Assembly (NCBI GenBank): GCA_963843575.1
Contig: CAWJKZ010000025.1
Location: forward strand, 224,001-288,000
Source: an uncultured Acidobacteriota bacterium
Lineage (GTDB): Bacteria; Acidobacteriota; UBA6911
Length of the DNA stretch: 64,000 nucleotides
Reading direction: 5' to 3'
Shown here: positions 49,265 to 53,935 of the stretch, in pieces
Layout: each line of letters opens with the position of its first letter
Position numbering within the stretch: position 1 is the first letter of the stretch
Translations under genes and position numbers: made by a program
The notes under the pieces: model-generated
Databases searched by the model: none
Seen by the model: the letters and a program-made list of their open reading frames with translations, nothing else
What the model was told of the DNA's origin: nothing

Positions 49265-49770
49265 CTACGTCCTGCGTGAAGTCGAGGCAAAACCGTTGCG
49301 GGCCGCCAGGTTGGTGCGAGGATCGCGTTTTACGGCATGGTTGAGGTCCGGGAACTTGAGCGGGTCCGCTGAAGAAGACCGGAGTGTTGTTGCCGACGAG
49401 ATCCCAGTTCCCTCATCGGTGTAGAACTTGATCGCGAAACCCCGGATGTCGCGCTCGGCGTCGGCCGCGCCACGTTCGCCGGCCACGGTGGAAAACCGCG
49501 CGAAAAGGTCGGTCTTCTTGGCACGGCGGCAAAGATCTTGGCCTTGGTGTACCCGGTGATGTCGTGGGTGACCGTGAAGGTGCCGAAGGCACCCGAGCCC
49601 TTGGCGTGCATGCGGCGCTCGGGGATCACCTCGCGATCGAAGTGGGCGAGCTTCTCCAGGTACCAGACGTCCTGGCGGAGGGCCGGCCGCGGGGCCCGCG
49701 GTCATGATGTTCTGGCCGTCGACGCCGGGCTCGCGGCTTGGTGGTAGCTTCATCTTGGCGTGATGGCTTC
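49265..49770 (-). pseudogene. katA: Frameshifted N-terminal fragment of a haem catalase
   Basis: [73 protein letters not shown] over several frames; the remainder is absent. Confidence 0.88.
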
Positions 49771-49839
49771 TCCTTCCCTGGCCTGCGGGTGACTCGGGCT
49801 TCCCGGGCGCCGAGTCCGTCGGCTCGTTCTTCGCACAGC

Positions 49840-50230
49840 CGACGCAATGCCTCGGACCTCGACGTGCGCGGCGACGACGCGGCCGAACTTCTTCACGGCT
49901 TCCGGGACGCGCAGCGCGTTGACTGTGCGCTCTCGAGTCCCGCGCCACCCGCAGCGGACGCAGATGTAATGGTGGTGTGCTGATGTTGCCGTCGGCGCCG
50001 CCCCGCGCGGGTCGAGCTGATCACGATCGCCCAATGCGGGCCTCCAGCGTGCGGCGCACGGGCAAGCGGCACCGCAACACCACCAACGCCAGCAACGCTC
50101 TCTGGGCATGGGTTCAGCTCTACCGCTCGAGGAGATCCCGAAGCAACGGTCTGCAGGGAACCCTCCCGCGGCTCGCTCGGAACACCCGGGCTAGGGCGCA
50201 CGAGCGTCGGGCCGTTCGTGCACTATGACG
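49840..50230 (-). pseudogene. Degraded Fur/PerR-family regulator upstream of the catalase fragment
   Basis: [10 protein letters not shown] and HVEVRGI motifs; multiple frameshifts. Confidence 0.6.
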
Positions 50231-50557: not shown

Positions 50558-51460
50558 ATGTCATATTTCCATCGCCGGGAATGGCTGCGCGCCGGGGTCG
50601 TTTCGCTGGGCAGCTTCGTGATCGGGGGACCGTTGCCGAAGGATCTTGTCGCCGGGAGCCGCCGCGGGATCTTCGACGCGCACCTTCACATTCCCAGCGA
50701 CAACGGCGAGAACTTCCAGTGGAGCCTGGTCACCCGGAACATGCCGGAGTTCGTCGCGTACCTCGACAAGTGCGGCGTCCGGCGCGGGGTCATATCCTCG
50801 TCCTGGAGCAACAAGGCACAGACTCCCGAAGATTATCGAAACGGGAACCGGGAGGTGGCGAAGTACGCCGACCGCTACAGGGGGAGATTTTTCGGCAGTT
50901 GCGTCATAACCCCATTTCGCATCGAGGAAGCCCTGCGGGAAATCGAGCGCTGTCACACCGAGGACGGCTTCCTGTGGCTGGGCGAGTTCTGCAACTACAT
51001 GACGGGATACAAATACGACACGCCGGAGTGGCGTCGGGTGATGGAGTTGGCCACGAAGCTCAACCTCGTGGTCCAGATCCACACGAACACACAGGAGATG
51101 CGGTACCTGGCCGACGCCTTCCCCGACACCACGATCGTCTTTCCACACCTCGGCAGCAGCCGGGACGACATATTCGCCCGCATTGAGATCATCGCCGGGC
51201 ACAGGAACGCGCACATCGATCTCTCGGGTTCGGGGATCGAGCGCGTCGGGATACTGGAGCGGGCCGTCAAGGAGATCGGAGCGGACCGCGTACTGTACGG
51301 TTCGGACTTTACCATCAACGAACCTTCGTCCGTCATCGCGCGCGTCAGGAACGCATTCCTGACGCCGGAGGACCGGGAGAAGATCCTCTTCCGCAACGTC
51401 GAGCGGCTCCTGTCGGCCGCGGCCAAAGGGGCGGGGGCAGTTCGACCCCGCCCCGAATGA
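50558..51460 (+). CDS. Amidohydrolase_2-family metallohydrolase with Tat-like leader
   Basis: HRREWL; FDAHLH, GEF, QIHT, PHLG, RVLYGSDF motifs. Confidence 0.88.
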   Translation: MSYFHRREWLRAGVVSLGSFVIGGPLPKDLVAGSRRGIFDAHLHIPSDNGENFQWSLVTRNMPEFVAYLDKCGVRRGVISSSWSNKAQTPEDYRNGNREVAKYADRYRGRFFGSCVITPFRIEEALREIERCHTEDGFLWLGEFCNYMTGYKYDTPEWRRVMELATKLNLVVQIHTNTQEMRYLADAFPDTTIVFPHLGSSRDDIFARIEIIAGHRNAHIDLSGSGIERVGILERAVKEIGADRVLYGSDFTINEPSSVIARVRNAFLTPEDREKILFRNVERLLSAAAKGAGAVRPRPE

Positions 51461-51546
51461 GCTGCAGCCCGGCGCATCCGAAGCGTCGCCGCGACGGGTC
51501 GAAGGTTCGCATCACTCGGCGGGGAATTCCACGCATGGAGTGACCC

Positions 51547-53019
51547 ATGACTCGCTCGTTGTCTCGCGTTGTCGCACTGGTTCTGGCCTTGATCCTTGGC
51601 CATGGGTTTACGCAACAGCCCGCTGCGGCGGTGACCCGGCTGGTCGTCTTCGAGGGCTTCTACCGTCACACCTGACCCATTTGCCAAACGGCCGGTCCGG
51701 TCGTGGCTCGCCTGGCGAACGATTATTCTTCGAAGCCGGTGCTTTTCGTGGAACAGGATGTCGACCACTCTGTCGGCAGCCGGCAGGACCGGTGGTGGGC
51801 GGCCTTTACCGGCACTACGGCCACCCTGCCTCTCGTGATGGCGGACAGTGGCCACGGCATCGGGAACGGCTCGGTAGATTTTTACACCGTCTACAAGGCC
51901 ATGGTCGACCGGGAATTGGCACGGGAACCCGCCGCTGAAATCGAATCCGCGAGCAGCCGGGTCGGGAACCGGCTGCGCTTCTCCGGCTGGATCACCAATC
52001 GCAGCGGCGTGACATTGTCCGCGGCGCGAAACGGCGCGACCGTTCACGCGCTGGTCTATGAACAGGATGGGGCAGTCGGGAGCACGGGCCGGGTGGTGCG
52101 CGCCGCTGTAGAATTCCCGCTGAGTCAGGACTTGGCCCAGGGCGCCGCCGTCTCTTTCGCGCTGGAGACTCCGGATCTTGCGCCCGTCAACTGGGATAAC
52201 CTGCACTCGGTCGTGCTGGCCGACTATCGGCCGGGGAGTCCGACGGGGCCCTTCGACATGCTCCAGGCGGCTGTCCCTTATGCCATCGGGTCCGACGTGA
52301 CCACAACCGCTTTTTTCCCGCATGTCGCACTCGGCGGGGGTTACACGACGGTCTTCAGGTTTGTGAACACGGGGAGCACGGCCGCCACGGGGCAGTTGAT
52401 CCTCACGGACCATGACGGAAGTCCGTGGCCCGTTTCCTTCTCGGACGCCTCTGCAGCCAGCCGGTCCGGCATCTCATCGTTCACGACCATTTCCATCCCA
52501 CCCGGCGGCACGGAATTTGTCACCGCGTCCTCGGGTGCCAGTCCCGGCCTGATGACGGGGTGGGCCCGGGTCGAGAGCTCGGGTGGGACGCTGGGCGGCG
52601 TCGCGACCTACTACTACGCCCCGGCCGGAAGCCCGCAGACGATCGTCGGGGTCCTGTCCGCCTCTCCCCTGTCGTCCGCGACGATCCCCAGGGACGACGA
52701 TGTCCTCCACGAGCGCTACTCGGGATTTGCCGTGGCCAACCCCGGCGAGGCGACGCTGACGATTAGGGTTCTGGAGGTCGGCGCCGACGGATCCGCCGTC
52801 GTCGAGCTCAAGCCCATCATCCTCGGTCCCCGGTCCCAGAAAGCCGCCTTCTTCTTCGAGGACCCCAAGGCCGCCCGGGAGTTCAAAGGGACGGCGGTTC
52901 TCCTGGAACAGACCGGCGCCAATTTCCTGGTTGTCTCCCTGGCCCAGGATCACGGTATCTTCAGCGCCGTCCCGGCGATGCCGGGAAAAGCCCCGAACAT
53001 CGGAGGACAAACGCGCTAA
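51547..53019 (+). CDS. Putative secreted selenoprotein: thioredoxin-fold UxxC domain, Omp28-like Ig domain and beta-rich C-terminal domain (490 aa with Sec43)
   Basis: ATG 51547 after GGAG is in frame with ORF 51703; signal peptide; VVFEGFYRHT-TGA(51673)-PICQTAGPVVARLANDY; SECIS-like hairpin follows. Confidence 0.8.
51676..51707 (+). promoter_or_regulatory. Candidate bacterial SECIS element
   Basis: GCC-AA-ACGGCCG-GUC-CGGUCGU-GGC: 3-bp lower stem, AA bulge, 7-bp upper stem, G-initiated apical loop 19 nt after UGA. Confidence 0.7.
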
Positions 53020-53062
53020 CGTATTTTTCAGGACGCGGATTCGCGCGGATCCCCACGGATCG
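53008..53062. repeat. Partial copy of the TACGCTAACGTATTTTTCAGGA repeat overlapping the stop codon of the upstream gene
   Basis: caaacgcgctaacgtatttttcaggacgcggattcgcgcggatccccacggatcg matches 45636-45690. Confidence 0.8.
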
Positions 53063-53102
53063 TCTCGGGATTGAGCGGTCCGCTTGCGCGACGCCGTCGG
53101 GA

Positions 53103-53935
53103 TCACTCCTCGCCCTCGGGGGTGCGGCCGTCCGAGGGGGAGTCCGGGGCATTTCGCTTCGGGAGCCACCGGGCGAGCTCTTTTTTCACCGGGGAGAACT
53201 CTTTGCGGGCGGCAAGGTTGGTCCACTCCAGTTCGTCATTCCCGTGGTCGTAGAGTTCCTCGGTGCCGTCGCTGTAACGGATGAAGCGCCAGCGCTCGCT
53301 CCGGGCGGCCGGAAAATCCCGCAGGCCAGGAAGAACGGGCCGGGCTGCGGCCGCACCAGTTCTCCGGCGGCCCAGTTGACCACCTTGTTGTCCCCCATCT
53401 GCGCGTCCGCGACGTCGATCGGCCCCCAGTCAAAATGGGCTTCCACGCCGGGGATGCCGTTCAGCGGCCGGGCGGGAGGGACCGGGTCGGCGGGTCGGGG
53501 CCTGTCCTTCGCGGGGAAGTACTCGTTCCAGCTTTGCGGATCGCGGAAGGCGTCGTGGAAGATCTTGCCGCCGCCCATGACCCGGTAGCCGTGCGCCATG
53601 AAATACTGCGGGAGCGTCACGGCGTCGCGCAGGGCTTCGGCGTGGCGCATCGGCTGCGAGTTGGTGTAGACGCCCGAGCTGGACGGCCTCACGCCCGTGA
53701 GCAGCGCGGCGCGGGAGGCATTGCAGAGCGGCGCCGGGCAGTGCGCGTTCGTGAACAGGACGCCCCGGGCGGCGAGCCGGTCGAGGTTCGGAGTGCGGAC
53801 ATCGGGGTGCCCGCCTAGGCAGCCGACCCAGTCGTTGAGGTCGTCGATGGCGATGAACAGGACGTTCGGGGACGGGCATCGGTCCTGCAGCAGGATCGTG
53901 CCGGCGGCGACCTTCAGGAAGTTTCTACGGTTCAT
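53103..53935 (-). pseudogene. Sulfatase (iduronate/choline sulfatase-like) with a large internal deletion
   Basis: Tat motif, [21 protein letters not shown] joined at about 53304, out of frame, to the C-terminal [20 protein letters not shown]. Confidence 0.85.

Follow-up and report, generated by a model that had tools for sequence, protein, structure and literature searches.

Positions 51547-53019 (+) of the window, by which we mean the whole stretch of 64,000 nucleotides that was analysed, very probably constitute one gene for an exported selenoprotein of 490 residues, in which a thioredoxin-fold domain carries the active-site motif U43-P-I-C46 and a hairpin directs the recoding of UGA. The reading of the internal TGA as selenocysteine (Sec) is strongly supported. 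The analysis established the recoding signals, the occurrence of Sec or Cys at the same site among homologues and the fold, and it showed how large and widespread the family is. In the proposed course of expression, translation would begin at the ATG at 51547, the hairpin at 51688-51704 would recruit SelB and tRNA-Sec for decoding of UGA codon 43 as Sec, and the product would consist, in this order, of a signal peptide (residues 1-28), the thioredoxin fold, a tightly associated beta-sandwich and a C-terminal pair of beta-sandwiches. A preliminary description of this DNA had proposed an exported selenoprotein of the thioredoxin fold whose UxxC motif opens with Sec, and this is supported by the homologues, by selB, selD and tRNA-Sec in the genome and by the structure model.

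Translation of the gene gave 490 codons followed by a TAA stop (53017-53019), starting from the ATG at 51547-51549 and containing a single internal in-frame stop, the TGA at 51673-51675 (codon 43). A Shine-Dalgarno-like GGAG was read from the sequence at 51537-51540 (+), separated from the ATG by a 6-nt spacer. Two codons upstream of the ATG, at 51541-51543, lies an in-frame TGA stop; the ATG at 51547 is thus the earliest possible start. The assignment of the whole gene is based on this translation, with TGA as Sec at codon 43, and on a full-length homologue (genome G006). That the frame reaches this ATG across one TGA and is preceded by a ribosome-binding site had been described before, and all these sequence statements held, as did the motif context, which was confirmed as ...VVFEGFYRHT-U-PIC-QTAGPVV.... 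A promoter and terminator scan of 51300-53300 revealed no promoter-like site and a single terminator-like site within the gene, in keeping with the chance rate. The gene is flanked in the window by an amidohydrolase gene upstream and a sulfatase fragment downstream. No conserved gene neighbourhood was found across the six loci compared, with neighbours scanned at five of six genome loci with listed ORFs; these included genes for a fatty-acid desaturase, GH2, GH3, YjeF and a methyltransferase.

The TGA at 51673-51675 (+) is assigned to U43, the first residue of U-P-I-C at the N-terminus of helix 1, on the basis of TGA and Cys homologues and of the profile alignment. The aligned codon was TGA at seven of seven GTDB genome loci (labelled Acidobacteriota or Chloroflexota), which were retrieved via a motif downstream of the TGA and three of which coincide with the loci of G006, G020 and G042 (TGA in each), and at 63 of 68 metagenome loci. 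The upstream motif RLV[VL]FE.F and a hydrophobic leader were kept at all seven genome loci, and conservation of RLVVFE.F upstream and AGPVVD.LA downstream of the TGA was found in 70 other loci. The homologue from G006 is full length and has the same TGA, with 62% identity over residues 24-485. In more distant homologues, the Sec site is occupied by Cys as part of CxxC (CGHC in L057, CGNC in L059), and a Cys codon was found at the site in metagenome loci L115 (TGC) and L121 (TGT). Of the library representatives, 52 extend across the site; counted by eye, 30 of these have CxxC, five have CxxS, 11 retain the second Cys only and six have neither or are unclear. The second (resolving) position of UxxC, Cys46, is encoded by TGC at 51682-51684 (+) and is Cys in most homologues; eight of the 68 metagenome loci have Ser or Ala there (UxxS/UxxA) together with TGA. 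Genome G046 gave weak matches only, and its locus (L142) was left out of the analysis. The check for homologues with TGA or Cys at codon 43 and a conserved upstream sequence, named in the preliminary description, was thus positive.

A SECIS-like hairpin was found at 51688-51704 (+), beginning 12 nt after the TGA, with a stem formed by 51688-51693 and 51699-51704 and the apical loop GGUCC at 51694-51698. The same hairpin was independently predicted by the RNAalifold consensus of 60 distinct sequences, in which pairing amounted to 95.2% of cells, with double changes in four of seven pairs, compared to 13.6-69% paired in slid controls. Covariation was 0.344 versus 0.202 in shuffled alignments, and none of 500 shuffles reached the observed value. 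At pair 27-39, which connects two synonymous third codon positions, CG occurred in 33 sequences, UA in 18 and GC in eight. Among the Cys/Gly forms (n = 5), four keep just 2-4 of the six hairpin pairs and the fifth keeps five. A search of Rfam gave no match in 51500-51900 at E <= 10; Rfam may have no model for such elements. With the E. coli SECIS rules for spacing and apical loop (a conserved, G/U-containing loop) as a yardstick, the hairpin appears from its sequence to fit the SECIS stem-loop criterion for SelB-dependent recoding. It was absent from the preliminary description and adds support to the selenoprotein reading.

Both the ORF list (table 11), where this frame begins at GTG 51703, and public gene calls start the protein after the TGA, as would be expected if the TGA were a true stop and the upstream frame a remnant or chance. 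However, GTG 51703 falls within the 3' arm of the hairpin, and a start there would leave the protein with no signal peptide and would remove strand 1 together with the active-site motif from a fold modelled with a pLDDT of 95-97 over those residues. Moreover, in-frame conservation of the upstream peptide extends over two phyla, and the Cys homologues read straight past the site; termination at this codon is therefore very unlikely. The TGA in this genome is known from the assembly. A search for sequencing runs listed DNA runs with small shares and no RNA run, and contigs of four public runs (X1-X4) cover 51400-51570 and 52540-53100, with no contig over 51571-52539 and no reads over the site. 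Together with the frame breaks elsewhere in the assembly, this would allow for a sequencing or assembly error in a Cys codon (TGC or TGT). The errors elsewhere are frame breaks, however, and not substitutions, TGA is found at the same codon in 70 independent loci from other assemblies, and the window has the hairpin typical of TGA forms, making such an error extremely improbable.

Decoding of the TGA as Sec calls on the Sec machinery of the genome, which is 88% complete. There, selB was found at 373 bits, over its cut-off, and tRNA-Sec at 74.6 bits, with ARAGORN also calling tRNA-SeC(tca). The selD gene is of the Sec type, over its cut-off and with an in-frame TGA of its own, and is split over two frames (192 + 134 bits). 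Matches to selA, all on contig C8, are broken into at least five pieces that differ in frame, each below the cut-off and together spanning model positions 56-406. The check for Sec machinery named in the preliminary description was thus positive for selB, selD and tRNA-Sec, but selA is present solely as frame-broken pieces. The frame breaks in selA and selD reflect either assembly indel error or a Sec trait that is decaying here. In the latter case, the family would truly be a selenoprotein family, yet a 42-residue peptide or nothing useful would be made here; the state of selA and selD is as this would predict. Against it, neither the gene and its hairpin nor selB and tRNA-Sec show any break, and the selA pieces, taken together, extend over positions 56-406 of the model. 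Unrelated genes of the window are also fragmented, namely a catalase (49265-49948) and a sulfatase (53186-53935), so that assembly indel errors fit better than a selective decay of Sec genes, and we regard decay as unlikely. In all five genomes tested, selB was over the cut-off; three of these have TGA forms, one has the Cys form only and one lacks the motif, and co-occurrence of the family with the Sec trait is therefore not discriminating.

For the exported selenoprotein that we favour, a Sec-type signal peptide was predicted at residues 1-28 (51547-51630, +), read by eye from the translation. The leader contains two Arg, the hydrophobic core VVALVLALILG and AAA directly before Val29, with predicted cleavage after AAA; these features agree with the signal peptide of the preliminary description. 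It has neither a lipobox Cys nor a twin-arginine motif, and residues 1-42 contain no Cys. Hydrophobic N-termini also precede the TGA in homologues. Relatives join the N-module to BACON_2, FG-GAP/VCBS, DUF11, LRR, fn3, TIG and cohesin-type modules. The signal peptide and these surface-type fusion modules were counted for an extracytoplasmic setting.

In the AlphaFold2 model of the N-module (md6345a3f1682; pLDDT 96.8, pTM 0.93), a thioredoxin topology is followed by a beta-sandwich. The thioredoxin-fold subdomain (residues 30-124; 51634-51918, +) is predicted to have the order beta-alpha-beta-alpha-beta-beta-alpha, with strands at 4-10, 36-42, 67-70 and 75-78 and helices at 15-30, 50-57 and 83-95 in model numbering. 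The Sec is model residue 14, at the N-terminus of helix 1 and in the position of the attacking Cys. The Ig-like beta-sandwich subdomain (residues 130-242; 51934-52272, +) is formed by strands at model residues 101-213 and packs after the thioredoxin fold. Comparison of the family profile with PDB thioredoxins gave an E-value of 4.9e-5 and put U opposite the leading Cys of WCGPC. Thioredoxin-fold enzymes have a cis-Pro in the loop preceding strand 3; P95 (model residue 66), invariant in 99 sequences and directly before strand 67-70, is a candidate for this residue. Against the Pfam Thioredoxin model (PF00085), the window protein scored 16.1 bits, below the gathering cut-off of 23.5, two Cys homologues narrowly passed at 24.0 and 24.4 bits, and 33 of 99 family members matched at E <= 0.1. 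Foldseek with the beta-sandwich subdomain returned weak Ig-like and CBM-like matches (TM about 0.3). By its predicted topology and the position of the motif, the N-module is a member of the thioredoxin-fold superfamily, and the model thereby agrees with the fold suggested earlier.

Among known selenoproteins, the thioredoxin-fold UxxC type for which Cys homologues exist is the most common, and new thioredoxin-like UxxC families turn up regularly. With the bacterial ones the window protein shares the replacement of the attacking, N-terminal Cys of CxxC by Sec at the start of helix 1, the existence of Cys homologues and a SECIS within the coding region just 3' of the UGA. Table 1 in PMC13188914 includes, as UxxC families, Sec-containing thioredoxin, DsbA-like, DsbG-like, thiol:disulfide interchange and Redoxin proteins, several of which are exported. 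None of the Pfam or NCBIfam models that define these families is reached by the window protein, for which PF00085 is the best match, and it differs from them in having the thioredoxin fold fixed to a beta-sandwich and followed by surface-type modules. The selenoprotein models of NCBIfam 20.0 (e.g., NF047660, HUIPC-motif thioredoxin-like; NF045500, GOS_C; NF040730, SaoT; NF041057, DsbG-like) gave no match to the window protein at E <= 1, and for the 99 family members the 25 families listed, out of 31, included no NCBIfam selenoprotein model. The family is also absent from the 2026 table of 119 selenoprotein families (PMC13188914); the groundwater-MAG study cited as ref. 66 in PMC13326102 and BSepDB Table S2 could list it. 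The statement of the preliminary description that the architecture was not one recognised as described is in line with the accessible literature and the family models searched.

Among named families, DUF1223 (PF06764), which comprises secreted CxxC proteins, has the same order of strand, E-x-F, CxxC, helix, proline loop, strand 3 and beta-rich half. An hhalign comparison of the family profile with five DUF1223 proteins of the same class gave an E-value of 8.1e-5 over 135 columns and placed Sec on the first Cys of the DUF1223 motif CSSC. The likeness is distant (hhalign probability 61%, 15% identity), and all five aligned DUF1223 proteins have Cys and not Sec. Five of the 99 family members matched PF06764 weakly (best E 0.0014), and the window protein had no match at E <= 1 (gathering cut-off 30.7 bits). 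This suggests that the N-module is a distant relative, and not a member, of DUF1223. A literature search found no paper giving bacterial DUF1223 a function.

The preliminary description had seen a likeness to Omp28. With the Omp28 lipoprotein model NF033782, on which this comparison is based, the window protein scored 12.2 bits (E 0.076), where the cut-off is 150, and 13 of 99 family members matched at E <= 1 (best 0.0093), amounting to a weak but recurrent likeness in the initial ~50 residues of the thioredoxin part. Omp28 membership requires a lipoprotein signal, and with a score far below the cut-off and no lipobox Cys in the window protein it was rejected; the weak similarity stands, but DUF1223 is the nearer named relative. 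A literature search on Omp28 together with selenocysteine found nothing relevant. The top Foldseek match to the N-module was to the C-terminal part of Mycobacterium tuberculosis DipZ (PDB 2hyx, 5cyy), an extracytoplasmic thioredoxin-like domain joined to a carbohydrate-binding-like beta-sandwich. With an E-value of 6e-5, a TM-score of 0.2-0.3, an rmsd of about 18 A and an identity of 10-14%, the match is weak, and DipZ has Cys.

The C-terminal module (residues 246-490; 52282-53016, +) was modelled by AlphaFold2 (m60a8e5bab03f) as all-beta with a pLDDT of 87.1, in the form of two beta-sandwich domains. It had no Pfam or NCBIfam match and thus belongs to no named family. Foldseek against the PDB gave no convincing match, the best being vicilins (TM about 0.2) and, for one sandwich, TM1070 (1nc7; TMt 0.71 over 120 columns). 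The module has 13 further matches within its own genome and lies at the extreme C-terminus in 35 of 36 aligned proteins, a position in which numerous secreted proteins from these bacteria have it, in agreement with the earlier remark that this domain occurs in acidobacterial secreted proteins. Paralogues of the module with '1 TGA' were considered as further selenoproteins and rejected, the TGA of L033 being an ordinary stop and L034 a frame-broken copy.

We infer that the protein functions as an exported thiol-disulfide (selenenylsulfide) oxidoreductase working outside the cytoplasm. In such a reaction, U43 would attack a substrate disulfide or an oxidised sulfur species, C46 would resolve the intermediate, and the C-terminal module would hold or target the enzyme at the cell surface. 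TGA homologues without the second Cys (UxxS/UxxA) imply that a strict dithiol-type mechanism cannot hold family-wide. Alternatively, the protein might be a real selenoprotein whose U-x-x-C pair serves in the binding or handling of metals or metalloids (e.g., Hg, Cu, As or Se species), and not in disulfide exchange with protein substrates. UxxC/CxxC pairs on thioredoxin-like and other scaffolds handle metals in several listed selenoprotein families, Table 1 in PMC13188914 having entries that include mercuric transport, metal-binding and arsenate-reductase-like proteins. Further, no conserved redox partner gene was found near the family loci (six loci), and the protein would be located outside the cytoplasm, without an obvious reductant there. 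On the other hand, thioredoxins proper are the closest sequence and profile matches, the UxxS variants would be poor bidentate metal ligands, and no metal-resistance genes adjoin the gene in the six loci examined, which together leave metal handling a doubtful, though not negligible, explanation.

Beyond oxidoreductase function as such, it is conceivable, and put forward here tentatively, that the proteins form an undescribed exported family, mostly with Sec, of which the window protein would be the first known case, in which a DUF1223-like module is set on interchangeable surface or binding modules and which comprises extracellular selenoenzymes acting on environmental substrates. Their targets might include oxidised species of sulfur or selenium, or exopolymer disulfides, and would not be the cell's own periplasmic proteins, and their hosts would be soil and sediment Acidobacteriota and Chloroflexota. 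If true, this would provide a first functional handle on DUF1223.

With proteins clustered at 50% identity, a profile search retrieved 500 clusters at E <= 0.001, 213 of them with E <= 1e-30. Among the best 150 representatives, the gene calls of 98 begin just past the Sec position, and the close full-length relatives in a collection of 5.8 billion proteins all lack the N-terminus; the copy of the window protein in the protein collection (P0002) has 438 amino acids. The truncation by annotation foreseen in the preliminary description thus affects the ORF list, P0002 and the relatives alike, all of which start after the TGA. None of the close full-length relatives has a better name than 'hypothetical protein', and others are named after other domains. 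Cut at the Sec codon, these relatives make up a family of probable exported redox proteins that is invisible to standard annotation.

The selenoprotein concept itself is unchanged by this family, which offers a new, clean set of aligned SECIS elements on which selenoprotein finders can be trained and ties DUF1223 to a Sec/Cys active site. Its near-universal use of Sec in close relatives (63/68 metagenome loci) suggests a real catalytic advantage of selenium outside the cell. The family spans Acidobacteriota and Chloroflexota, two phyla dominating soils and sediments, and raises the selenium demand to be expected of both.

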